Shown piece by piece: positions 3,983-55,052 of a stretch of DNA of 64,000 nt. A program made the translations under genes and the position numbers. The stretch lies in contig OZ024741.1 in NCBI GenBank assembly GCA_964016885.1, positions 206,088,001 through 206,152,000 on the forward strand. The letters run 5' to 3'. The notes beneath the pieces were generated by a model. That model did not search any database, was not told the origin of the DNA, and was given only the letters and a program-made list of their open reading frames with translations. Numbering within the stretch: the stretch's first letter is position 1; every line of letters starts with the position of its first letter. The stretch is from Eledone cirrhosa. Its lineage: Eukaryota.

Positions 3983-3984
<2 letters not shown>

Positions 3985-4964
3985 CAGTCTCCTCGTTCAT
4001 CTCTTTACTAGAAGTCAGATATATTTTTTATGTGGGCTGACAGTAATTGATTAAGGAACTGCAGAAACCCCAAAAGCTAGAATTTAACATCTTTCTAGCG
4101 GGTCCGGGTGAGTTTTTACATTCATTTAATTTATTAATTTATTAATTTATTATTTGAGTGACCCGAATTTTCCTGGTCGTTTTTTTCGGCTGTGCGAATG
4201 ATTTTAGGTATCGTCTCTATGTGTTGGTACTTTAACGATAGTTATAGCTCTGGTTCATCCAAACTATTGAGCCCTCTGCCACACATGTCGAAGATTGTTT
4301 ATCGTTATTTCGTGGGCCGAGATTCTGATTCTCGATTATTTACTTGTATTAATCTCCAGGCTTTAGCTATTGACCAGTTAATTTTATTGATTTTTTAGCT
4401 GATCTTATTGACTGATGAATAGCTCTTGTTTATTTTAACACGTCTGTTGAGAACTCTTATTCGATATGTGATTTTTTGTATTCTTACAAAATTTACACTT
4501 ACTGAATTCTTTCGCCAAATATAGGAGTTCCCTCCCTTGCTGGACTACACGCGTGTTCAGTAACGGGTCCCCCTGTATTTTTGAACGAAACATCCGCTGA
4601 GAAAGCAGTCTCCTCGTTCATCTCTTTACTAGAAGTCAGATATATTTTTTTATGTGGGCTGACAGTAATTGATTAAGGAACTGCAGAAACCCAAAAAGCT
4701 AGAATTTAACATCCTTCTAGCGGGTCCGGGTGAGTTTTTACATTCATTTAATTTATTAATTTATTAATTTATTATTTGAGTGACCCGAATTTTCCTGGTC
4801 GTTTTTTTCGGCTGTGCGAATGATTTTAGGTATCGTCTCTATGTGTTGGTACTTTAACGATAGTTATAGCTCTGGTTCATCCAAACTATTGAACCCTCTG
4901 CCACACATGTCGAAGATTGTTTATCGTTATTTCGTGGGCCGAGATTCTGATTCTCGATTATTTA

Positions 4965-4967
<3 letters not shown>
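3983..4967 (+). repeat. Partial tandem repeat, ~622-bp unit (about 1.6 copies), between (TA)n tracts; probable non-autonomous PLE/retrozyme-type element
   Basis: 3983-4345 recurs at 4604-4967 nearly identically; CTGATGA at 4412. Confidence 0.85.
4502..4825 (+). ncRNA. Candidate structured RNA domain (copy A)
   Basis: Colinear conserved blocks and compensatory stems versus 13019-13341. Confidence 0.6.
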
Positions 4968-12869: not shown

Positions 12870-13345
12870 ATATTCCTGATGAAGAACTTATGTCTGAAAC
12901 GTCAAACCACTTCCATCAAGCGCGAACCTAATATAACTGTGTACAATTGCCTCCTGTGTTTTGTTCGTTCATTTTCAACAAATTGTGATATTTTGCATTT
13001 TCGCAATATTATACACAACTGAATTCATTCGCCTAATATAGGTGTTGCCTCCCTTGCTGAACCCCACGTGGGGTCAGTTACAGATACATTTATGTGGGCA
13101 TTCGAACTGAATCCCGTTGACAGCGCGTACTCCCAGTTCAGTCATAGTACCAGAAGCCTAACATCCTTTATGTAAGTGGACAGTAAATGACGTATGGAGC
13201 CGCAGAAACTCAAATACTGGATTTTACCATCTCTCCAGGGGTCCGGGTAAATTTTCAACCATATATGTTTTTATATATTTTTATATTTGTATATCTGTTT
13301 GACCCGAATTAGGCGGTCGATTTTTCGCTGTGCGGATGATTAGTT
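12870..13345 (+). mobile_element. Non-autonomous element: HHR-like motif (12876-12903) followed by structured domain copy B (13019-13341)
   Basis: CTGATGA-AGA..TCT-GAAACGTC; downstream blocks homologous to 4502-4825. Confidence 0.6.
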
Positions 13346-13369
13346 TAACCAGTTTTTACTGGTTAAACT

Positions 13370-14178
13370 AATCAGAGGATGCTCTGAAACTCCCGCACTC
13401 CCTTCCCTCCGGTGAAACTCTCGTGGTATCTAACAACATCAGAGACGTGGACAGCAACATAAGCTGGGCCACGCATATAAGCAGCAAAGTTGACATGGCC
13501 CGCAGAATGTTTTCCTGGATCCTCAGTCGAGAGATTCCCACACCATTATCCTTCTCTTCTTCACTTTTGCCCGACCACACCTTGAATACTGTTGTCCACT
13601 GTGGTCTCCCCACACGAAACAAAGTATCATGAAACTTGAAGCTTCCCAAAGGGCAATCACGAAAAAGATAGATGGCATGTCAGACCTTGACTACTGGGGT
13701 CGACTAGAAAAGCTGAAACTTTACTCACTCCAACGTCGCCGTGAGCGTTATATTATCTGCATGATGTGGAAAATGTTTCATCAGCACTGCCCAAATGATG
13801 TTGGCATCACCTTCAAAATACACCCAAGCCTTGGGCCCCGTGCTATCCGTCCCAAACAAAAATCTTAATCGCAACTCATAACAACAATACGGCACAATTA
13901 TTTCACCTCAATTGGCCCTGCTCTCTTCAACATCACACCAGGACACGTCAAAACAGAAACTGACCACACACAATTCAAGAAGTCTTTGGACAAATTCCTC
14001 CAAGTAATCCCGGACAAACCACCCACACCCGGATATGTCTCCGCAAACAGTAATTCTCTTCTCGAATGGGCCATGGTGCCCAAATCCTGAATTAAAAGAC
14101 TTCGCCAGGTGGTGCTATTAAGTTAGATGTGGCCTGGCCAATACTGGCCAAAACATTTCAAAGTTATTCAAAGTTAAG

Positions 14179-14324: not shown

Positions 14325-14431
14325 GAATATATATATATATGTATATATATATACATATATATATATATACATATATATATATGTACATATATATATATAC
14401 ATATATATATATACATATATATATATACATA

Positions 14432-16377
14432 TATGAAGACAAACATAGAATATTCGAAAATATTCTGTATGTTTATAATAAACATTTTGAAGACCCAATC
14501 GCTATAGAATAGAATACGTCACGTATTACAATTTGAGATTCTCGATAAAAGCAAGGGAAGTAACCTACGCGTTTCATTCTTATTAGAAATCATCAGGATT
14601 ACATATCCAATGCTTTTATCGAGAACGACACAGCTAGAGACTTATAGAATACTTAGCTGTGTACAGGAACTGGTTTGAAAGAGCGGCAGCCGGTCCGGCA
14701 GAAATTAAAATTTGGATATAATGCTCTGAAATAGCGATATATATGTGAAGACAAACATAGAATATTCGAAAATATTCTGTATGTTTATAATAAACATTTT
14801 GAAGACCCAATCGCTATAGAATAGAATACGTCACGTATTACAATTTGAGATTCTCGATAAAAGCAAGGGAAGTAACCTACGCGTTTCATTCTTATTAGAA
14901 ATCATCAGGATTACATATCCAATGCTTTTATCGAGAACGACACAGCTAGAGACTTATAGAATACTTAGCTGTGTACAGGAACTGGTTTGAAAGAGCGGTA
15001 GCCGGTCCGGCAGAAATTAGAATTTGGATATAATGCTCTGAAATAGCGATATATATGTGAAGACAAACAGAATATTCGAAAATATTCTGTATGTTTATAA
15101 TAAACATTTTGAAGACCCAATCGCTATAGAATAGAATACGTCACGTATTACAATTTGAGATTCTCCAAACCAGTTCCTGTACACAGCTAAGTATTCTATA
15201 AGTCTCTAGCTGTGTCGTTCTCGATAAAAGCATTGGATATGTAATCCTGATGATTTCTAATAAGAATGAAACGCGTAGGTTACTTCCCTTGCTTTTATCG
15301 AGAATCTCAAATTGTAATACGTGACGTATTCTATTCTATAGCGATTGGGTCTTCAAAATGTTTATTATAAACATACAGAATATTTTCGAATATTCTATGT
15401 TTGTCTTCACATATATATCGCTATTTCAGAGCATTATATCCAAATTCTAATTTCTGCCGGACCGGCTACCGCTCTTTCAAACCAGTTCCTGTACACAGCT
15501 AAGTATTCTATAAGTCTCTAGCTGTGTCGTTCTCGATAAAAGCATTGGATATGTAATCCTGATGATTTCTAATAAGAATGAAACGCGTAGGTTACTTCCC
15601 TTGCTTTTATCGAGAATCTCAAATTGTAATACGTGACGTATTCTATTCTATAGCGATTGGGTCTTCAAAATGTTTATTATAAACATACAGAATATTTTCG
15701 AATATTCTATGTTTGTTTTCACATATATATCGCTATTTCAGAGCATTATATCCAAATTCTAATTTCTGCCGGACCGGCTACCGCTCTTTCAAACCAGTTC
15801 CTGTACACAGCTAAGTATTCTAAAAGTCTCTAGCTGTGTCGTTCTCGATAAAAGCATTGGATATTTAATCCTGATGATTTCTAATAAGAATGAAACGCGT
15901 AGGTTACTTCCCTTGCTTTTATCGAGAATCTCAAATTGTAATACGTGACGTATTCTATTCTATAGCGATTGGGTCTTCAAAATGTTTATTATAAACATAC
16001 AGAATATTTTCGAATATTCTATGTTTGTCTTCACATATATATCGCTATTTCAGAGCATTATATCCAAATTCTAATTTCTGCCGGACCGGCTACCGCTCTT
16101 TCAAACCAGTTCCTGTACACAGCTAAGTATTCTATAAGTCTCTAGCTGTGTCGTTCTCGATAAAAGCATTGGATATGTAATCCTGATGATTTCTAATAAG
16201 AATGAAACGCGTAGGTTACTTCCCTTGCTTTTATCGAGAATCTCAAATTGTAATACGTGACGTATTCTATTCTATAGCGATTGGGTCTTCAAAATGTTTA
16301 TTATAAACATACAGAATATTTTCGAATATTCTATGTTTGTCTTCACATATATATCGCTATTTCAGAGCATTATATCC
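14432..16377. repeat. 312-bp tandem array with one HHR per unit (retrozyme-like); ~2.3 minus-strand units then ~3.9 plus-strand units, inversion at 15165/15166
   Basis: Unit landmarks at 14435/14747/15059 and 15241/15553/15865/16177; near-identical units; long (TA)n flanks. Confidence 0.93.
15241..15283 (+). ncRNA. Type-I hammerhead ribozyme (also at 15553, 15865, 16177 on +; 14560-14602 and 14872-14914 on -)
   Basis: GTAATC-CTGATGA-tTTCT aata AGAAt-GAAAC-GC-GTA-GGTTAC; stem I extended by TCTCGATAAAAGCA/TGCTTTTATCGAGA. Confidence 0.9.
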
Positions 16378-17505
<1,128 letters not shown>

Positions 17506-18484: not shown

Positions 18485-20118
18485 ATATGGAGAAGTTTAT
18501 GAAACGGAAATGCGGGTATAAATAATTTATTAGGTAACAATTGTTTCTATAGTGTATGGGTTACCTATACCTATCCATAAGGATCTCCCGACTGTCGTCT
18601 AATTTGCAGACCTTCAACGAGCATGCTGAATATTATAATGACGCACTTAGAAAAGCTGGTTACTGCGAGAAAATAGAAAATCTAGACGATAACCACATAA
18701 GTACTATGAATAAAACACATCTAAGTCGAACTAGTATTGCACCACACACACACACATCAATAGGCATACTAATAGGTGCAAACCAGCAAATAGAGTCAGA
18801 CGTAGAGAGTACATATGGTATAACCACGTGTACAATATTTCTATTAGCACTAAAATTATATCACAATTCTATACACTAATCAATAAACACTTTACAACTT
18901 CATATAAATACTATAAAATCTTTAACTCGCGCACTATTAGACTCTCATACTCCACTGCACCTAACATAGAACAACTAATTAAAAAACTCAACTCAGCAAT
19001 ACTAAATAAGTACATCCCTAATGACTCAGCGCACCAGCATAGCAACATACAACACACTAACACGTAACTACAACCCCACCAAACCATCCAGGATACTACT
19101 GCAGAACCTAAAAATAATTGTAACTGCACCAAACCAGGTACGTGCCCACTGAATAACCAGTGCCTAGCACGCAATATTGTCTAGCGATGTACAATAAATT
19201 CCGGAACCAACAAATGGTATTACGTCGGATGTACCGCAACTTCTTTCAAAGATCGCCTATACCAACATCGATCTTCGATCAGGCACGAGAAAATGCGCTC
19301 CGTAACAACCCTCGCCGATAAAGCCTGGCAGCTCCGGAGGAACAATCAAGCATTCTCCCTTGATTGGCAAATTATTTCAGCTGCGCCTGCATATAAGCAA
19401 AATCATCGATTCTGTAAATTATGCAATATGGAGATATACTGCATTTTAACGTCGGTAAACAAACTTTTGAACAGCAAAATTGAACGTTCACTGTATTGTA
19501 ACCATCGTTTGAAAACGACTTTTTCTGTTTTTAAATGCATGTAATGTTACCTTTTTACACCACCGTTTGCAAATTTCTGTTTTATATGTTTATACACAAG
19601 ATATGGCTTTCTATAATAATAGTACTAAACACTGTTTTCTGGACCCCTTTAGAAATAACCTGCTACTATAATAGCCCCAATAACTTGTCTGTAACTCTGT
19701 ACCACTTTGACCCCTTTAACTAAATTTTGTCCAAACAACACCACTAGAAAAATTTACTTCCCCCGCCAACCCTAACATGCCTCATTAAGCTAACTGCTGC
19801 CAAAACTTTCTCTCCTTACAATCTCTACTAGTCTGACAGTCTTAAATCCTAGGACTCCCTCCCCCTTACTCACTTCCCTCTTCCCCTTCTCTTCCTACCT
19901 CCTTCTTTCTCTTTTATCTAGTGTATGAAATATTTTCATATCATTCCAATACAAAGGTCTGACGACATGGTGTGTTTGCTTGCAGTGTACCTTCGGTTTA
20001 TGATAATATTTTTATATTATTCAAATAGCGAGGTATAGGTAACCCATACACTATAGAAACAATTGTTACCTAATAAATTCTTTATACCCGCATTTCCGTT
20101 TCATAAACTTCTTCTCTA
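18485..20118 (+). mobile_element. 5'-truncated Nematis-type PLE with short inverted 5' pLTR copy
   Basis: SIRISRLSS..YYNDAL, LSYSTAPN, CNC..CPL..C knuckle, YYVGCT..FKDRLYQH (GIY-YIG), decayed; ~18490-18572 is the reverse complement of ~20031-20113. Confidence 0.88.
19955..20071 (+). ncRNA. Type-I hammerhead ribozyme with extended, branched stem II
   Basis: AGGT-CTGACGA-CATGGTGTGT...ATACACTATA-GAAAC-AATT-GTT-ACCT-AATAAA. Confidence 0.82.
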
Positions 20119-20393: not shown

Positions 20394-20431
20394 CCTTTTG
20401 AAAAGCAGAAGAACTGCGAAACCGGTAAAGG
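20394..20431 (+). ncRNA. Minimal type-I hammerhead ribozyme, U3-A8 core variant, in a ~210-bp element (20360-20568) between (TA)n tracts
   Basis: CCTT-TTGAAAA-GCAG aagaa CTGC-GAAAC-CG-GTA-AAGG then AATAAA. Confidence 0.8.
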
Positions 20432-25555: not shown

Positions 25556-26584
25556 ATATGTGTGTGTTTATATGCGTATATATATGTGCATGTTTGTGTA
25601 ATCACGTGTAAGTGTCTACCTCGTTAAATACATAAGGCTACCTTAAGTAAGAGTGAGTTAAATGCACAAATAACAGATTCAACAAGGTGTTTATTGATCC
25701 CTTTGTTGTCTAGGCACGTAATCTAGACTTTATTTAAATAAACTATACTCTATTTAACTTTGAAATTGGCAATGCTTTGCGCATTTTCTAAAAAGGGAAT
25801 ATTAAATTACAAACAGCTTTAATGATTTACGTGATGAATAAAAAATGAATTCGAAAAAGAACACAAAATACACAGAAAAGTTTGTTTCACTGACCGAATA
25901 TAACTGATGACAAAATGTTAATGTATAATATGCAACTCCCACGAAGATGTTCACACAAATTTAAACGACAAATCTCAATTCTCTTAACTGACTTACCTGC
26001 CGTCAACCGCGACAATAACGTATTCGAGATTGTAACTTAACGCTACGTTTCATCATTTATAAGAATTTTGAGACTTGAAATATTGAATTAGAAAAGTGAA
26101 TGTCCTACTTCATAGAAATAAATGTTGGGCACTGGAGTAGCTAAACCTGCCAGTAGGAGAAAGAGGGAGAGGGGTGGAGGAGACCCATTCATGCGTTGAT
26201 AGTGCCGACTACAGCTGGGCAGGAGGTCAAAGAAAATACTAGGGAGGGGGAGGGGGAGGAAGTCGAAACAATAAGTAGAACAATAAGGGGTAAATATATA
26301 GAAAAAACTGAGAGTGTTAAAAAGCAATTAAATGTAAAAAAAAAAAATTAAAAAAAAAACAATTTCTGGTTACTACGACCTAAGTCTCTCACTGGTACTG
26401 CTAGGCTAAAAAAATATACTAGGTGGGACGGAATTATAATGAGACCCTTTTAAGAGGTATAAGTAATAAACCGAGTATATCTTACGGTGACGGGTTAACA
26501 AGTGAGGGGCCAAAATACTAAAGAAACTACCACGAAATAATAAATAAAGGTTTCTACCCCAGGCACAAGGCCAGCAACCACCCA

Positions 26585-28466
26585 AAACTCCGGAGCAACT
26601 TAACAGAGTATGATAACATCAATGACATCATGGTGCACTCGGATAAAACTGGGAACCTCTACTTTGTCAACCCCGACAGATACCACACACTGATCAGGAG
26701 CAACCTAAACTCCACCTATAAAAAGGCTAACCACTCATGCATCGAGGACATAAATCGAGATGGACAACAAATTACCTCCAGCCTCGGGGTCGCCGACCGC
26801 ACGGAACCCCTACACCCACGGACACCCTACTTCACACCGAAGGACCACAAATCTGATTTCGACCGTAAACCTTCTATCAGGCTTATAAACCCAACGAAGT
26901 CCGACATAGGGAGAATCAGCAAAAAAATCCTAGACCGCGTGATACCAAAAGTTAAGCAACACGTCCGACTTAGCCTATAGGTCAACACCAGTAAGTAATC
27001 TCATGGTTCAGCAATATGGAGGAAAAACGAGACACTAAATTCATCCAGTTTGACATAGAGAGTTACTATGCTTCAATCACCTTACCGCTACTTACGGCTG
27101 CCTTGGACTTCGCCGAAGCACTTGTGTCCATCACCGACCAGGAAAGAAACATCATCCTCCACGCCAGGAAGACAGTCTTACTCTTCGACAACTCCAAATG
27201 GATAAAAAGAGCTCCCGACTCACCCTTCGACGTCAGCACAGGCGCGACGGATTCGGCTGAGGTCACAGATCTTATAGGATTATTCCTAATAGCCAAACTC
27301 ACCGATATGTTTCCTGCATTCGGCGGTGGATTGTACCGTGATGATGGGCTCCTTACACTTAAAGGGTACAACCCCAGTAGTACAGATCGGGTCCGTAAAC
27401 AATTAATCAGCTTCTTCCGCGACTGGGGATTTAAAATAACCCTAAAAACGTCCCTGACCCGAGTAAACTTCCTGGACGTTACCCTCGACCTCGATAATGA
27501 TCTGTACTACCCATACAGGAAACCTAACGACAACCTGCACTACATCCACCGCCGGTCAAACCATCCTAGGAACATCACCAATAACCTGGTTAAAAACATC
27601 TCCCTCCGCATATCCCGTTTGTCAGCTAATGAGCAGATATTCGATGAATATGCGCCTTATTACAACCAGGCCCTCAAGCGGAGTGGTTTCCGGGAGGAAA
27701 TATCCTACTGTCCAACTCCCATTAGCGGAACCAGCAGGCGACATCGCCGCTCACGCAATGTAACATGGTTCAATCCTCCCCACAACGCCGAGGTGACAAC
27801 TCCTATCGGGAAAATCTTCTTTAGGCTCATGAAAAACACTTCCCACTACAACACCGCTACCACAACATAATTAACAAAAATACCACCAAACTCTCTTACG
27901 GCACTACACCAAACTTTGCACAAAACATCGTCTCCTCTAACAACAAAAAACTCAACCCCTATGGAAGAAATAACCTAAATAGCAGTGGAGAGCCGACCAG
28001 GAGGTGCAACTGTCCTGATGGATCCATTTGCCCCCTCGACAACAGATGCAGAGATCGTAATGTGATCTACCAGTGCAACGTGAGGACGGACACCTCCAAC
28101 AAAGCTTATATAGGATTAACCGCATGTGACTTCAAGACCCGGCTATACCAACACAGACATACCTTCCGAAACCCGGCCCGGCGTCACGCCACTACACTTT
28201 CGGGCTACATATGGGACCTCAAGGATAACAACATTACCTATGATCTCACTTGGAGCTTACTGTCCAGAGCCAACTCTTACACGGGAGGACGCCGTCCGTG
28301 CAATTTATGCTCGGAGGAAACTTTACAAATGTTGTTTTCGACGGACCAACTCCTAAACAAGAAAGATGAATTGGTTACTGCATGTAAACACAGATTGCGT
28401 AGGACTTACCTCGCCCTCAAACCCCATAATGACCGGGGGGGGGGGGGGGGTAGACTAGGGCTATAA
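26585..28466 (+). pseudogene. PLE reverse transcriptase + GIY-YIG endonuclease (stops near 26980-26997, frameshift near 27835)
   Basis: SDKTGNLY, IRLINPTKSDIG, QFDIESYY, GLYRDDGL, NFLDVTLDL, YRKPN, WFNPP, CNC..CPL..C, IYQC..YIGLT..FKTRLYQH. Confidence 0.93.
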
Positions 28467-31162: not shown

Positions 31163-34075
31163 ATGGAAAAATTCAATTACTCTTCTTCCCTGAAAGACAT
31201 ACCAATCCCGTCTGATAATACGTACATGGGCCTGCTGATATACCACACCAACTCGTTCATCAGACGCATGAGGTGGCGCGCATTTCACCCCGACAGGCGG
31301 ACACAACAACACGCGCCCGACGCCCCTCAGGACTGCCTAAAGCGGATATTTAGATATAGAAGACACCCACTGCATAATGCACAGCTGGAGGAATTTGAAA
31401 ACCGTATAATCAACATAGTTCGTAACATCAAGTTCCATAGGAATAGTGCACGGCGGACCAAATATCTCTAAAGTCTTAGCTCCACCATCAAAAGCATGGA
31501 AAAATGCCAGGATTTACTAGTGCCTTCGGACAAAACTGGTAATGTATACATGCTTGACCGTTTTACATACAACGACTGCCTCGGAAAAGAGATTAAGAAA
31601 AACTATAGGACCACAGGACAGACAAATTTAGATAATATTAACGCCACGACAAAAAGTATACTGACGGGGCTAGGACTAGAGGATAGGACCGAGGTATATG
31701 TACCGAGAAAACCACGGATATCTATTAAGGACCATAAATTAGACTTTAAAACAAAACTACCGGTTAGGTTAATAGCACCCTCCAAATCTGACCTAGGCAG
31801 GACCAGCAAGAATATTATAGATAGGATACTACCGGTACTTAGAAACAAAACTAAGCTTAGTCTATGGACCTCCACTAAGGAGGTAATTGACTGGTTCTCG
31901 TTAATAGGTGACAAACACCAAGTAAATTTTATTCAGTTAGGCATAGATAGCTATTACGAGTCAGTATCTCCGATACTAGTCAATAAGGCCCTCATAAGCG
32001 CCATGGCCAGATCTAGCCTCACTAGGAAGGAGACCAACCTCATAGTAGCAGCCAGAAATACGCTAATTAGATTCGAAGACAAGTTATGGGAGAGGAGGGA
32101 CATACCCGACAGTTTCGATATCACCATGGGGTCGAGTGACTCGGCGCAGGTGACCGACTTTGTGGGGATATATCTCATCCATAGGCTAACGGAGGAGATC
32201 CTGGGGATCGGAGGGTGAATATACAGAGCCGACGCACTTTTCACCTTCCGTTCCCTTAACCCCAGTCAGATGGAGCGTATGAGGAAGCGCATATCGCATT
32301 TTTTTAAACAACACGGCTTATCCGTGACAATAGACCCTAGCACTAAGACGGTCAATTTCCTGGACGTTACCTTGGAAATGAATACGGGCATCCACAGACC
32401 GTACCATAAGCCCAACGAAAACCTGCAATATGTGAACAGGCAATCGAATCATCCTAAGTCAGTCATAGAAGCCATAGTTAAAGGGGTATTCAAACGCGTA
32501 TCCACCCTGTCGTCGAACGCAGAAGTGTTTAAACAGCACGCCAAATATTATAATGAGGCACTGTGTAGGGCCGGTTACACAGACACCATACTATACACCC
32601 CGGACAGAGTAGAGCCAAGTCATAAGGCGTGCACAAATGCCAATAACGGGGGCGCCTCCTTAGGTAGAAGAAATGACCCGGTAGCAGTATCCAGGAACAC
32701 AAATAGCAACACAACTACCTTTAATGACGCAGGACCGACCTGAGGTAGGACAAAGGCACCCATAGGAGCCAGACCACCCAGTACGCGGAGGCATGGGCCT
32801 GGTACGCACACTGCATGCTCCGTGGCAACTGGGACCAGGGACAGGACATCGACAAATACGGACGGGGCACACGCCAGGGAGCACGCCCAGCCTGGTTGTA
32901 GTGGTACAGCACCGACAGCAGCATCACATAGACCTAAGGGGAATAAACGTATAGCTGACCACATAGAACGACGTAACTTTATAACTGTAGGGCATAACGC
33001 CGACGCCCATAGCGGGAAAATAGACAGAGTCAACACACGGGATGTAATTGTGGTTGGGCCGAGCACAGGAGGGACATCGTGTCCTGGACACACCAACAGG
33101 AATTCACGCACACGAAGGAACAAATCTAAGGCCGTTACTTGGTTCAATGCGCCTTAATCCAAACATGTACGCACCAACGTGCCAGGACATTTTTCCCGAG
33201 CGTTGGATGAGTGCTTTTCGCCGACGAACAAGTACCACAAAATCTTCAACCGCCACACGGTGAAGTTTTCCTTCTCCACGGCACCTAATATGGCCGACTA
33301 CATGGCTAAAACTAACGCGGTGAAGATGGCGCACACTGGCCGTCAACTGCGGCGACAGAGTGACCGTCTTTCGGAGCGCAGTCAACCACCCAGGGACCTG
33401 CCCTCAATTGACAACCCGGCCCCCGATGCGACCAGAGCACCCGCGGAGGGTGATGTGGTCCAACGCCGAGAGGGAAATAGTGGTATGGGGGAGACAACAG
33501 TGTCGGCGGTACAACACCCTGAGAACCTTGGGAGGGCCATAGCAGATCGAGGCCCGGACATCGGATGCGTAAGAACTGACAACAGAACTTGTAACTGCAG
33601 AGCGGGCACCCGGTGGCCCCTACTGGGAAAATGCCTGATGAAGGACCTAATATACAAGTGTGTGGTTACAACCCAAAACGCACATCACACCTACATCGGC
33701 GCAACATCCACGACCTTTAAATCGCGGATGTATAATCACACGAATTCCTTCAGGGACCGTAGCAAAAGGCACTCCACTAGGTTAGCGGACCTGGTGTGGG
33801 ACCTGAAAGACCAAAGCACTCCGTACGTTCTGGAATGGAGAATCGTTCGCCACGCGAGGGCATATTCGGCCGGAAGTAGAAAGCGCCGATTATGCCTACA
33901 CGAGGCCAAGGAGGTAGTCAGACTGAAAGATGACGCCGTCAACCTGAAGTCTGAAATTATCATGACCTGCAGACACCAGAGAGGATGCACATTTGCATCA
34001 TGGAGTCCTCCGGGTGGCGCAGGCCGGGGGCATGGGAACGGGTACGCACAGACCCGAACGGCCCAACGGGATTAG
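31163..34075 (+). pseudogene. PLE RT-GIY-YIG polyprotein, one reading frame (~970 codons) with four in-frame stops
   Basis: ORFs starting at 31163, 31496, 32270, 32822 and 33179 share a frame; YSSSLKDIPIPS, RRMRWRAF, SDKTGN, NFLDVTL, YIGATSTTFKSR; catalytic motifs altered (QLGIDSYY, IYRADA). Confidence 0.9.
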
Positions 34076-37821: not shown

Positions 37822-38945
37822 ATTAATTAGTTAAGCAAAACAAGACCACAAATTTCACAAGGAAGACATTATTAAAAGATTGTCAACATATTTTAGTTTG
37901 ATGTAAGGAATGTAGAGAATAATAATAATATTAATAATAATAATGTCCGTTTACAATTGTTTCGCTACTCCGTATAATATTTCTGGATCAGATGACTATA
38001 TATCATAATTGAGCTGGTTCAGTTGAAAATAATTAACATATTTAAAAAACAGAGCGGCTCATCGGAACTTCAAGGGAATATAAATTAAAATAATGAGAGA
38101 ATGTTACATAATATAATGTTCCATATATTGGTTTTTCACTATGGTGTCTTGGTTGCATCAGTTGTCAGCCATAATCAAGCAGTATTCATCTGTCGAGGCT
38201 GCATTGTGTGAGATCTGCCTATGGGTAACAAGATGGCTGCCAAAGGACATATTACCTTACTAATTAGAAGGTGGTTTCAGGAGAAGTACCTCCTCGAGAG
38301 ATTAGAAATTGTGGGTAGTTTATAGTTAAGTGCTAATTTTTAAATTTTTTAATTGAGAGACAATGTAGGGGAGGTAACTTATAATTATCTAAGTTAGTCA
38401 TAGCTATTTAACTTATTAGCTACAAGTAAAAATGGGGCTAGATGACTAAGTTGGGTCAAATATTCTATTGGCGAAGGAATTAGCCCTTCGATGTTGACAG
38501 CTAATAGTTACCTCCGTTCTATCGTTAATCGGTAGAGGTCGTGATAGAGTTATGTAATATGCTTCTGTAATACAGAGATAACAAGATTTTCTTCGTCCAT
38601 TGAACGGTTGGGCCCTAGCCACGATATCCCATTTTAGTGAGTGTTGAACGTTGCTTAATTTAATGTTTTTAATGAGCCTAGCTAGCGATGTCGAACATCT
38701 GTTGCTAGGGTCACGGAAGGAAAAAGAGTGCGCGTTATAGCGTACCTTAAAAGGGTTAGAGGTAGACCCGATGTAAGAGCTGGTATTCGAAGCAGTTTTA
38801 ACCGTGCACCTATAGACTATGTTGGGTGTCAGGCAGTGACCATTTAATGGGCATGTATTAGGGTAACGGCAGTTGCAGTTGCTTCTGCGGTTAGTGAGAG
38901 TAGGGTAGTTTAACCTAAGCGGTAGGTCAGTGTTAGAAGGATTAC
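37822..38945 (-). mobile_element. 3' fragment of Nematis-type PLE (knuckle + GIY-YIG + pLTR)
   Basis: Minus strand CNCRYPNTCPLNGHCLTPNIVYRC..SYIGSTSNPFKVRYNAH..CYLCITE..CQH. Confidence 0.87.
37949..38068 (-). ncRNA. Type-I hammerhead ribozyme, U4C core, long stem II
   Basis: GTT-CCGATGA-GCCGCTCTG...CGGAGTAGC-GAAAC-AATT-GTA-AAC. Confidence 0.72.
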
Positions 38946-39054
38946 GCTTTGGCTTCTAACTAATTCACCAATCTCTCCTCTCATATCTCCTCTTCTATCT
39001 CCACCTCTCTATTTAAGATTGGTTACTCTTGAACTGTGTATAAATATATATATA

Positions 39055-39909: not shown

Positions 39910-39940
<31 letters not shown>

Positions 39941-39942
<2 letters not shown>

Positions 39943-41432
39943 AACGTTAGAATATGTGTAATAAGGCCAAGACAATGCAGATATGGACATAGAAAAAGAA
40001 TGCAATAGTGAGAGATATTGATGAGGATTCGTCTTTCACCTTGAATTTATTTAAATGTCCTTAATTTTCGAGATAATATCTCTTCTTCGGAGGGAAGTAA
40101 AAGTCTCAGACCAGCGTCTAAATTTCCAATGAAGCCATGCTGACCGGAAATAGTATAGAGTTCTAACTTTAATATCAAAGAATTAAAATTAGGTGGGTAA
40201 AGAGTAGTCTCCCTTTAAGAGGGGTTTGTTTATGTTTTTGTTGTGTTTTTTAAATTTTATATGCGTGCCTGTATATGTGTGTGGGAGAAAGCATGAAGGT
40301 GTAGGTATGTGTGTGTGTGAGTGTGGGAAGATAGGTCTAATCGTAAAAGTGGGGGGTAGGTGTTATCTGGTGTTAGAACTGGTTTTGTGTGTGTATGTGT
40401 GAGAGAGAATAAGTGGAGGTGTGTGCGTGCGTGTGTGTGGGGTGTGTAAAGTGGGGCTAGAGGTCCTATCAGGTTATAAATTGGGTGTTGAGCTCTAGTC
40501 TATTATTGATTGGTGGATGTGTTCTATCTATAATGAGTGCTTCCTTGATTCTAAGATTACCGAGGTTTCTTTCTTTAGTTTCTATCCTAACTGTTATGTT
40601 TTTATCAGTGTTTTTGCATTTAACTAGGTGTTTCTTAAATGAGGAAGCGTTAAAAGAATAAAAGAACACCTCAATACTAACGCTTCCTCATTTAAGAAAC
40701 ACCTAGTTAAATGCAAAAACACTGATAAAAACATAACAGTTAGGATAGAAACTAAAGAAAGAAACCTCGGTAATCTTAGAATCAAGGAAGCACTCATTAT
40801 AGATAGAACACATCCACCAATCAATAATAGACTAGAGCTCAACACCCAATTTATAACCTGATAGGGCCTCTAGCCCCACTTTACACACCCCACACACACG
40901 CACGCACACACCTCCACTTATTCTCTCTCACACATACACACACAAAACCCGTTCTAACACCAGATAACACCTACCCCCCACTTTTACGATTAGACCTATC
41001 TTCCCACACTCACACACACACATACCTACACCTTCATGCTTTCTCCCACACACATATACAGGCACGCATATAAAATTTAAAAAACACAACAAAAACATAA
41101 ACAAACCCCTCTTAAAGGGAGACTACTCTTTACCCACCTAATTTTAATTCTTTGATATTAAAGTTAGAACTCTATACTATTCCCGGTCAGCATGGCTTCA
41201 TTGGAAATTTAGACGCTGGTCTGAGACTTTTACTTCCCTCCGAAGAAGAGATATTATCTCGAAAATTAAGGACATTTAAATAAATTCAAGGTGAAAGACG
41301 AATCCTCATCAATATCTCTCACTATTGCATTCTTTTTCTATGTCCATATCTGCATTGTCTTGGCCTTATTACACATATTCTAACGTTTATACCTCATTAC
41401 ACAATGCTTCAAGTGAACTATAACCTCCTCCT
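39941..41432. mobile_element. Fold-back PLE remnant: ~710-bp near-perfect inverted arms, ~25-bp spacer, Penelope/Poseidon-like GIY-YIG C-terminus, HHR-like motifs at 40059-40093 (-) and 41237-41271 (+)
   Basis: 39941-40652 vs 40678-41390; KRIKEHL..KKHL..LRIKEALII..PPIN; CCT-CCGAAGA-aGAGAT att ATCTC-GAAAATTA-AGG. Confidence 0.85.
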
Positions 41433-47439: not shown

Positions 47440-47847
47440 TATTTTCCGTTGTGTTGTAATATAAATATTACACACAGTAGATTGACAGCTCATGTAGAGT
47501 TTGCTCGACGGTTCCAGTTGAAATTCCAAAAGTAATCCGGAGAAAAATAGAAAGATTTGAATGGATACAGTTTAGTTGAAAGGAATTTATTGACACGTGT
47601 TTCTATAACAGTTACATAACCTAAAACAGCTGCTATCTACAAAGTATTAGTTATGCAGACAATCAATATTTCAATGTTATTATTTCCTGTCATTTCATCA
47701 GAATAATATTACTGAGGACCTGTTTGGTTTTTATAGAGAATATTAGGAGAGAGGGGTGAAGTTGTTAGAAGAATAGTTGAGGGAGTGGTTTTTTGATAGC
47801 AGTGAGAATTGTTGGTGGCAGTGAGTAATTAGATTCCCATATATATA

Positions 47848-52970: not shown

Positions 52971-55052
52971 GTGGAACACTGGAAGGTAATATCCGTAGTG
53001 GTAGAGCACTCAGTCCATGGGACGAGTTAGGTAGAATTGGTTACACAACAGTTAGTTCACCATACCGAGAACAATTGTTTCACCTTAGCGGATCCTCAGC
53101 TCGTAATGGGCATGGTTATAGGAACAGGAAGGACAACCGTACGAACGCGCATGCGTAGAAACCCGGTCACTTCACACAGGCAATACTAGAATGCGGGCGA
53201 CAGGTGTAAGGGAGATAACTGCGAAAGTCCGAAAAGTTTTTAGTTGAAAATAAAATTACAAGGAATCAGTCGGGAGCCTTCTAGTTATGCAATAGGTGTT
53301 TGACGACGTGTGGACAACGTGTGAAAAATTCATTTCTCGTGTTGAGACAATCACTATTGCGTAATCTCTTGAGAATAGTTATTCGTTCGTCAATACATAA
53401 GCCACACGTCGGATTTCCCCTTGCGTATGGCTTGAACTTAGTGATGGCTTTCCATTGAATGGAGTAGTCTATACTTGTGTCCTTGAGGGACCATACGTGG
53501 CTCGCGAGTTTCGTGGATGAACGTCTGTCCGGGTACCTGAAGGTAGACTGGTGGTTCAGGAAACGTTCCTTAAATCGGCCCTCCGCCATGCCCACATAGG
53601 ATTTGACCTCCTGTGGTTCGTTTGGTCGGTTGGAAGTGACCACAGCTTCATAAATTACAGTTGGTGTGTTGCATTGCTGTTGAAGGGGGCAAGCTTCGGG
53701 CTTACGGCAAGAGCACCCTGGTGGGGTGTTGCTCCTAGGGTTGCTGGTGATGTGGGCCTTCATGTTATTAGCGCAGGAGTATCCTAGTTTAACTTTGTGT
53801 CGGTTAAAGATGGAGCGGTATTTATGACCTATGGGAAAGTGTCTATCTAAGAGGGCTAGAAATGTTTTTCCTACATTGGTTTTAACGTTGAGTGAGAAGG
53901 GAGGAGAGAACCAGATAGTTTGTCTATTGTTGCGCTTACTTTTCTTAATGGTGTCGTTGCTAGTGGGAGAGTAAGTGATAGGTTTTGAGAAGCCGCTGTT
54001 AGCCAACGCCGTGTTATAGTAGGGTGCCACCCTGTCAAAGATAGCCTTATTAGAGGAGAGGTTTGAGATTCTAGTACTGATATTCTTAATGAAGTTTCTA
54101 AAAACAGTGGGAGGGTGGCATAAGTCCTTGTGAATGTAATTGAGTTTCTCGTTTAGCTTATGGAAGGGTCTGTGTGTGTGTGTGTGCGAAGGTCTAAATT
54201 AATGTCTAAGAAATCTAAACTAGAGAGGTTGGTGGCTACTGTTATCCTAAGTCCTAACTCATTGAAGCTAAGTCTTTTTTAAACAGTCGAGGTCGTGACC
54301 ACTTTTATGACTCGATAAAGTCAGTCCATCGTCACGGTATATTCCCGTGTGGAACTCCGGGAATCTAACACGTAATATCTTTAAGATAAATAGGCCAACC
54401 AAGTCACATACGTCAGCACTGTCAAACGATCCCATGGAGACGTCGAATAGGTCTGAAGTTGTAGACTTCTTTGCCCAGGCTACTCCGTCGTTGAAGAGGA
54501 GGGTTTTCCGGCAGTGAGCGATGATTTCCTGAACCACCAGTCTACCTTCAGGTACCCGGACAGACGCTCATCCACGAAACTCGCGAGCCACGTATGGTCC
54601 CTCAAGGACTCAAATATAGACTACTCTATTCAATGGAAAGCCATCACCAAGTCCAAGCCATACGCAAGGGGAAATCCGACGTGTGGCTTATGTATTGACG
54701 AACGAATAACTATTCTCAAGAGATTACGCAATAATGATTGCCTAAACACGAGAAATGAATTTTTCAGACGTTGTCCACACGTCGCCAAACACCTATTGCA
54801 TAACTACAAGGCCCCGGACTGATTCCTTGTAATTTTATTATCAACTAAAAACTTTTCGGACTTTCGCAGTTATCTCCCTTACACCTTTCGTACGCATTCT
54901 AGTATTGCCTGTGTGAAGTGACGGGGTTTCTGCGCATGTGCGTTCTCACGGTTGTCCTTCCTGTTCCTATAACCATGCCCCTTACGAGCTGAGGATCCGC
55001 TAAGGTGAGACAATTGTTCTCGGTATGGTGAACTAACTGTTGTGTAACCACT
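52967..55052 (-). mobile_element. 5'-truncated Nematis-type PLE with ~525-bp inverted copy of its 3' end
   Basis: Minus-strand FDVSMGSFDS, GIYRDDGL, IWFSPPFS, CSC..CPL..C, SYVGMAEGRFKER (53281-54524); 54525-55050 is the reverse complement of 53038-53564; (TA)n on both sides. Confidence 0.93.
53066..53103 (-). ncRNA. Minimal type-I hammerhead ribozyme; inverted copy 54985-55022 (+) has GAAA mutated to GAGA
   Basis: CGAG-CTGAGGA-tCC gctaa GGt-GAAAC-AATT-GTT-CTCG. Confidence 0.78.

Follow-up and report, generated by a model that had tools for sequence, protein, structure and literature searches.

The region 4502–4825 of the window (the whole 64,000-nt stretch of Eledone cirrhosa DNA that was analysed) likely contains an enlarged, atypical type I hammerhead, which probably cleaves itself, with a predicted cut after C4726. 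The reading that we favour, with a probability of roughly three in four, is that this region is the core of a large non-LTR retrozyme, whose hammerhead likely self-cleaves and whose copying into (TA)n likely relies on the enzyme of a Penelope-like element (PLE). The initial annotation described a structured RNA of about 320 nt, of no recognised class. Its proposal of a conserved cis-acting RNA structure in a hammerhead-bearing mobile RNA is supported by our results, but the homology between the two copies, A and B, spans the whole monomer (622 and 624 nt), and the region holds a type I hammerhead core that recurs in 160 units. The repeat is best read as one of a known type, a retrozyme, whose type I hammerhead is pseudoknotted and atypical, and not as a new class of RNA.

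Both copies are members of a family of non-coding repeats of 580–624 nt with many subfamilies, whose representatives are 53–95% alike in pairwise comparison; more subfamilies were found by pattern searches. With either window copy as a query against its own genome (3.0 Gb), 40 of the 40 scored matches have 90–100% identity. An exact two-motif pattern gives 1,368 matches on the forward strand of this genome, compared to 23 for the control. The reverse-strand count is inflated by one place that is repeated; doubling the forward-strand count indicates that the scattered copies, certainly well over a thousand, number about 2,700. The units have a low GC content (36–39%), and family A is young (median 1.9% from its consensus). 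No ATG-initiated ORF longer than 57 codons occurs in 13 tripled monomers, which leaves the earlier suggestion of an IRES unsupported, and no ORF is contiguous with the monomer among the repeat loci examined. The contigs of two sequencing runs contain the repeat and relatives of it, while none of the sequencing runs listed is an RNA dataset containing it. A pattern scan of metagenomes returned 28 matches, none of which resembles the monomer outside the pattern, and which we take as chance. A search of the openly accessible literature listed no description of the family.

The insertion pattern was surveyed in 175 insertions with flanks (window copy B being counted twice). A common 3' end is found in 165 of them, directly followed by TA repeats in 161 of these 165, and TA repeats are present on the 5' side in 134 of the 175. 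The 5' starts, on the other hand, are spread across the unit. More than one unit is present in 76 of the 175 insertions, and one locus has 13 full units in tandem, which are diverged from one another. The fixed 3' end, 5' truncation, partial tandems and (TA)n target are those of a non-autonomous PLE, and the non-coding unit with one type I hammerhead, present in tandem and dispersed copies, is that of a non-LTR retrozyme. Regarding the template, 144 variants are common to neighbouring units of a tandem, and 206 and 172 are private (11,035 sites, 54 insertions), counts that agree with circular and with multimeric templates alike.

Features of the repeat copies and of the PLE remnants in the window
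Feature	Positions	Strand	Details
Full 622-nt monomer, family A	4346..4967	+	ends at (TA)n run
Upstream unit of partial tandem, 5'-truncated	3983..4345	+	98.9% identical
5' hairpin	4365..4424	+	4365-71/4418-24 and 4375-81/4408-14; includes CTGATGA 4412
Closing helix, 5' strand	4502..4516	+	partner 4816-4825; modest support
Long hairpin	4519..4578	+	conserved unpaired CTCCC, CANNTG-type apex
Predicted pseudoknot, leader strand	4583..4588	+	partner 4614-4619, within loop II
Hammerhead stem I, upstream strand	4591..4596	+	pairs with 4727-4732
Core positions 3-9 and one extra base	4597..4604	+	C3-A8 mismatch in copy A
Stem II and loop II (~60 nt)	4605..4684	+	stem 4605-4614/4676-4684; loop with pseudoknot strand and irregular hairpin
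Extra A, second core half, stem III, C17	4685..4726	+	G12-A15.1 4686-4689; stem III 4689-92/4722-25 with hairpin arm; C17 4726
Stem I, downstream strand, and predicted blocking hairpin	4727..4787	+	stem I strand 4727-4732; alternative partner 4783-4787
Family-B copy, both ends truncated	12983..13351	+	
Family-B copy, parts			core 13117-13123; GAAAC from 13205; blocking strand 13302-13306
PLE remnant with 3' hammerhead	18571-20110	+	hammerhead at 19959
PLE ORF remnants, Hydra-clade motifs	26522-28466, 31265-34075, 38446-38955 (-), 53281-54800		no Pfam match

All the blocks and stems that the initial annotation quoted for the two copies are present where it placed them. Copies A and B are 70% identical over 370 nt (E 2e-29), and both are confirmed, but they are not alone: a third, partial copy lies directly upstream of copy A and starts inside stem II, so that its first core half is absent. 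Copy B terminates, at 13329–13375, in a short inverted duplication, after which comes a LINE-like fragment.

The assignment to the hammerhead class comes first from the arrangement of the helices. Two covarying stems cross each other, and the layout is that of a type I hammerhead, with stems I–III around the core and stem I open. In unconstrained folding of 4590–4740, stems I–III form with probabilities of 0.83–1.0; all three stems form in 5 of 10 other copies folded unaided. RNAalifold applied to 23 natural copies predicts 15 pairs, all within stems I–III. A hammerhead descriptor matches 16 of the 23 representatives, none of their 23 reverse complements and one of 2,300 resampled sequences.

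The most conserved blocks of the region are the core and stems of the hammerhead. Each fixed core position is conserved in 156–160 of the 160 near-complete units that were tallied: U4 in 158, G5 in 156, A6 in 159, A8 in 157 and A9 in 158, a core half (UGANAA) that was absent from all the patterns used to pick loci. The counts for the other half (G12 in 158, A13–A15.1 in 160, U16.1 and C17 in 159 each) must be read knowing that the second core half and the cut site belonged to patterns that picked some loci, GCAGAAAC and GGTCCGGG being selection criteria for part of them. Position 7 is free (G in 66, C in 46, U in 36 and A in 12 units). The 3–8 pair is U-A in 129 of the 160 units and in the majority of subfamilies, C-A in 27 units and U-G in 3. 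The pair 2.2–1.2 is C-G in 8, U-G in 9 and U-A in 5 of the 23 representatives. The very distant families keep the core, the cut site and stem I, and have an altered stem III and loop II.

The hammerhead departs from the canonical form around stem II. The distance from A9 to G12 is 76–83 nt (one row being misassigned), and the canonical R10.1-Y11.1 pair, which would adjoin A9 and G12, is missing; in all 160 units, stem II is instead flanked on both sides by an additional base (A, C or G on one side and A on the other), and then comes G-C. These extra bases reduce the fit to the canonical descriptor. The resulting A-A or C-A mismatch at 10.1–11.1 is unusual and may slow down cleavage; a natural mismatch at this position, U-U, is reported for pseudoknotted hammerheads in the available text of PMC3088659. 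Both window copies also have defects in the core. In copy A, as in 26 of the 29 family-A copies examined, position 3 is a C facing A8. In copy B, whose predicted cut is after 13243, A9 is changed to G.

The covariation of the stems, first proposed from two sequences, is real in a deeper alignment. A model of 35 pairs, applied to 23 representatives, is paired in 85% of 798 cells, against 27–43% for slid controls, and two-sided changes are seen in 16 of the 35 pairs. When it is compared to 500 shuffles, three measures are reached by none of them, and the other two by 24 and 33. A tree-aware test of 17 helices finds 16 branches with double changes where 2.2 are expected. The helices that are significant on their own in this test are the 5' hairpin (p 0.002 and 0.034), the apical stem of the 4519–4578 hairpin (p<0.001), stem II and one stem of loop II; the other helices are not, among them the block, the pseudoknot, stem I and stem III. 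Thermodynamic stability is less uniform, copy A being more stable than its shuffles (z -3.8), whereas copy B is no better (z -0.45). An automatic helix scan of the raw alignment was swamped by chance helices rich in U and G.

Loop II, of about 60 nt, contains a hairpin and a strand that is complementary to the leader. The GAAC/GTTC stem of the initial annotation is real as a pairing, but is reassigned: judged by complementarity, it is a pseudoknot in which the leader is predicted to pair into loop II of the hammerhead. Leaders pair with the loop of their own unit over 5.6 bp, compared to 5.0 bp across families (p 0.0002) and 4.3 bp after shuffling, and the pseudoknot has at least 5 bp in 21 of the 23 representatives, two of these in another register. 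According to the available text of PMC3088659, pseudoknots are common among hammerheads and U3-A8 cores are active.

The strand that follows the cut can pair either within stem I or with a strand located 11–53 nt downstream. The latter pairing, the CGGGT/ACCCG stem, excludes stem I and is predicted to switch the ribozyme off. This stem had been listed with the covarying ones; it is indeed present, but is nearly invariant among the copies sampled first, and shows covariation only in subfamilies found later. In folds that include the blocking strand, 8 of 10 copies favour the hairpin over stem I. For window copy A, the block forms with a probability of 0.67 in folds up to 4790, and is absent from longer folds or from the circle, in which stem I is lost to other pairings. 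A subfamily with A at position 1.2, which was found by a search selecting that A, makes up 11 of the 35 loci scanned; the U-A pair of stem I is present in 8 of these 11, and the matching change in the blocking strand in all 5 loci where it is visible. The matching change is absent from 13 scattered copies with A at 1.2, as decay would give. Separately, L270, L277, L283 and L303 form one subfamily with a TA microsatellite in the loop of the blocking hairpin, and L303 has tandem fragments, set between TA runs, that comprise nothing but the hammerhead region.

It may also be that the fold derives from a hammerhead that cuts poorly or not at all, and is kept as a protein-binding scaffold, the repeat spreading through linear multimeric transcripts without circles. 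C3-A8 is fixed in family A, which is young, so that cutting may be weak or dispensable there; the 10.1–11.1 mismatch is present in all units, the 3' ends lie 197–247 nt from the predicted site, and in one PLE, in the available text of PMC11167929, cleavage is dispensable in vitro and needed protein. We nevertheless find this explanation unlikely, because it is exactly the catalytic positions that are invariant while position 7 is free, down to about 53% identity and beyond, and because a covarying blocking strand is most easily explained if cleavage must be prevented.

The self-cleaving hammerhead does not account for all that is conserved. The 4519–4578 hairpin, the 5' hairpin and the closing helix are conserved as well, and lie outside what it explains. 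The 5' hairpin, just 3' of the tandem junction, is a candidate element for binding the reverse transcriptase. The closing of the domain by its 5' and 3' ends, which the initial annotation proposed, is favoured by a permutation test (p 0.037), but this helix has no double change on the tree; the competing pairing of its 3' strand with the 3' arm gives no family-specific signal (p 0.56). The apex of the long hairpin (4546–4555) and its homologues keep CANNTG across families, with one subfamily departing, and include non-palindromic forms (L261, L262 and L266). This apex fits a DNA E-box better than a kissing loop.

The CTGATGA motifs are indeed upstream of both copies, at 4412 and 12876 (90 and 143 nt away), but the hammerhead is not there: it is within 4502–4825. 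The motif at 4412 has no GAAA partner, belongs to the covarying 5' hairpin, and has another sequence in other subfamilies. The one at 12876, short and hammerhead-like, is part of a different element, and is found ahead of one of 30 family-B loci. A type II or III hammerhead at the upstream motif, cutting at the tandem junction, was rejected for want of a GAAA partner and since the junction of family H differs. Likenesses seen by eye to HDV-like ribozymes, group I P3/P7, the telomerase pseudoknot, RNase P/MRP and IGR-IRES were dropped after the core was recognised. As the initial annotation supposed, the region has no known Rfam family: cmscan against Rfam 15 of both copy regions, with E up to 10, gives best matches far below the gathering score, and nothing comes near it in the whole window among the 150 of 179 matches listed. 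A structured RNA of a new class, be it an IRES, a module for dimerisation or a new ribozyme, sitting beside an upstream hammerhead would fit this lack of an Rfam match and the conserved parts left unexplained, but it is highly improbable, considering that the best-conserved blocks are the core and stems of a hammerhead, that the upstream CTGATGA is not the hammerhead of this element, and that there is no ORF.

Coming back to the retrozyme, the repeat family, its insertion pattern, the core with its three stems, the pairing of the pseudoknot and the mutually exclusive hairpin are best explained by a mechanism whose steps we infer as follows. Tandem copies would be transcribed by read-through, and the hammerhead would fold during transcription, the leader–loop II pseudoknot keeping stems I and II together. 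Cleavage would occur before the downstream blocking strand appears; this strand would then capture the stem I strand, so that the released monomer would be locked against being cut again. The monomer may be circularised by a host ligase, and the circle would be locked likewise. The protein of a Hydra-clade PLE would then nick (TA)n, and reverse transcription would begin internally, about 200–250 nt 3' of the cut, which would account for the constant 3' end, the variability of the 5' ends and the partial tandems. The genomic 3' end is 197–247 nt past the predicted cut, as expected from internal initiation; that the genomic ends do not coincide with the cut site counts against the reading. In one PLE, internal initiation downstream of the hammerhead has been shown, and the protein-assisted hammerhead was dispensable in vitro (PMC11167929, available text), PLEs are described as targeting (TA)n, with insertions that are 5'-truncated or form partial tandems (PMC8557442, available text), and animal retrozymes have been argued to derive from PLEs (bioRxiv 10.64898/2026.07.22.740005, available text).

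The mobiliser is likely a Hydra-clade PLE. The PLE remnants of the window have the DKT, RW(R) and CxCX5C motifs of this (TA)n-targeting clade, while a Pfam search with 8 ORFs of the window gave no match. The remnant at 18571–20110 belongs to a young family (40 of 40 matches at 98–100%, 1,089 candidates), and in its hammerhead loop II measures about 74 nt, the two halves of the core are 90 nt apart, and stem II is flanked by the same extra bases on both sides. The monomer has no similarity to this one PLE family (best E 0.85), five motifs gave no indication among the matches listed for the Craig 2021 supplement, and no sequence link to a specific autonomous PLE family was found in the loci and this young family. 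With no ORF contiguous with the monomer and no shared sequence, the PLE partner is a candidate only. Naiad is a less likely mobiliser, being reported as long inactive in cephalopods (PMC8557442, available text).

Tandem arrays, and insertions with one end fixed and the other variable, are compatible with rolling-circle DNA transposition as well. A rolling-circle (Helitron-like) DNA element or a satellite, whose stems would act in single-stranded DNA, could accommodate the 13-unit array of diverged units, but has very little probability given the numerous G-U intermediates on the + strand of the 23 representatives, the restriction of the complete ribozyme core to this strand, and (TA)n targeting with partial tandems as the available text of PMC8557442 describes for PLEs.

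Regarding known systems, our comparisons refer to the available parts of the papers cited. Animal non-LTR retrozymes (PMC7229834; bioRxiv 10.64898/2026.07.22.740005) likewise have non-coding, low-GC units that are both tandem and dispersed, with one type I hammerhead per unit and co-occurring PLEs. The monomers are larger here (580–624 nt, against about 220–400 nt in the cases compared), and the enlarged hammerhead with its built-in blocking hairpin is atypical; in most metazoan retrozymes, the circle is predicted to lack a block and to keep the ribozyme free (PMC7229834). Circles are a feature of animal retrozymes, and a possible product of the repeat. The minimal hammerheads of PLEs, including the U3-A8 variant of Schistosoma Cercyon (PMC4209133), are also type I, and share a helix II of 8–9 bp, a helix I of 4–6 bp and one additional base on the 5' side of stem II. 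Contrary to them, the repeat has a real helix III with a hairpin arm, with which it could act as a monomer, a loop II of about 60 nt, a pseudoknot and a second extra A before G12, and no ORF. Pseudoknotted hammerheads (PMC3088659) likewise have base pairing that connects the regions of stems I and II, and the U3-A8 covariation. At 10.1–11.1, where the repeat has A-A or C-A, U-U alone is mentioned in the available text, and the repeat further differs by the large, structured insertion of its loop II. PLEs of the Hydra and Naiad clades (PMC8557442) and Poseidon PAc (PMC11167929) share a (TA)n target, truncated 5' ends, partial tandems and a 3' end downstream of the hammerhead; unlike them, the repeat has neither reverse transcriptase nor endonuclease. 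Last, plant LTR retrozymes and viroid-like RNAs share a size near 600–700 nt and a ribozyme blocked by a complementary strand, but the hammerhead of the repeat is type I and not type III, and its tandems lie at (TA)n without an LTR arrangement.

The repeat extends animal retrozymes to about 600 nt, and its natural hammerhead adds an architecture (core halves about 80 nt apart, a pseudoknot, U3-A8, 10.1–11.1 mismatch) which current models miss. How metazoan retrozyme circles escape being cut again, a question left open in the available text of PMC7229834, becomes testable with the built-in covarying blocking strand. PLEs called hammerhead-less or half-core in the available text of PMC8557442 can now be tested for long-loop versions, of which the young PLE family of the window has one. 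The subfamilies are natural mutants, and young family A, whose 3–8 pair is broken, tests whether spreading needs cleavage. More tentatively, hammerheads with a large, structured loop II, a leader pseudoknot and extra bases on both sides of stem II might be a widespread, hidden subclass within PLEs and their retrozymes, missed by Rfam and by standard descriptors and possibly behind the 'half-core' motifs of Naiad, and the repeat an abundant, self-locking circular RNA in an animal; we consider this wider view possible rather than probable.

The window contains further elements. Two other hammerhead-like motifs, whose core halves are about 90 nt apart, lie in PLE-type 3' regions at 47701 (-) and about 38090 (-), the first core half of the latter being degenerate. 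Short hammerhead candidates at 20398 (+), which has a U3-A8 core, 52823 (+), 53099 (-) and 12876 (+) belong to other TA-associated elements. A perfect inverted repeat of 714 nt with a 25-nt spacer occupies 39939–41391. At 14425–16378, a tandem array of 312-nt units with an inverted block is a retrozyme of ordinary size, each unit of which has a type I hammerhead with a canonical core and a palindromic stem III.
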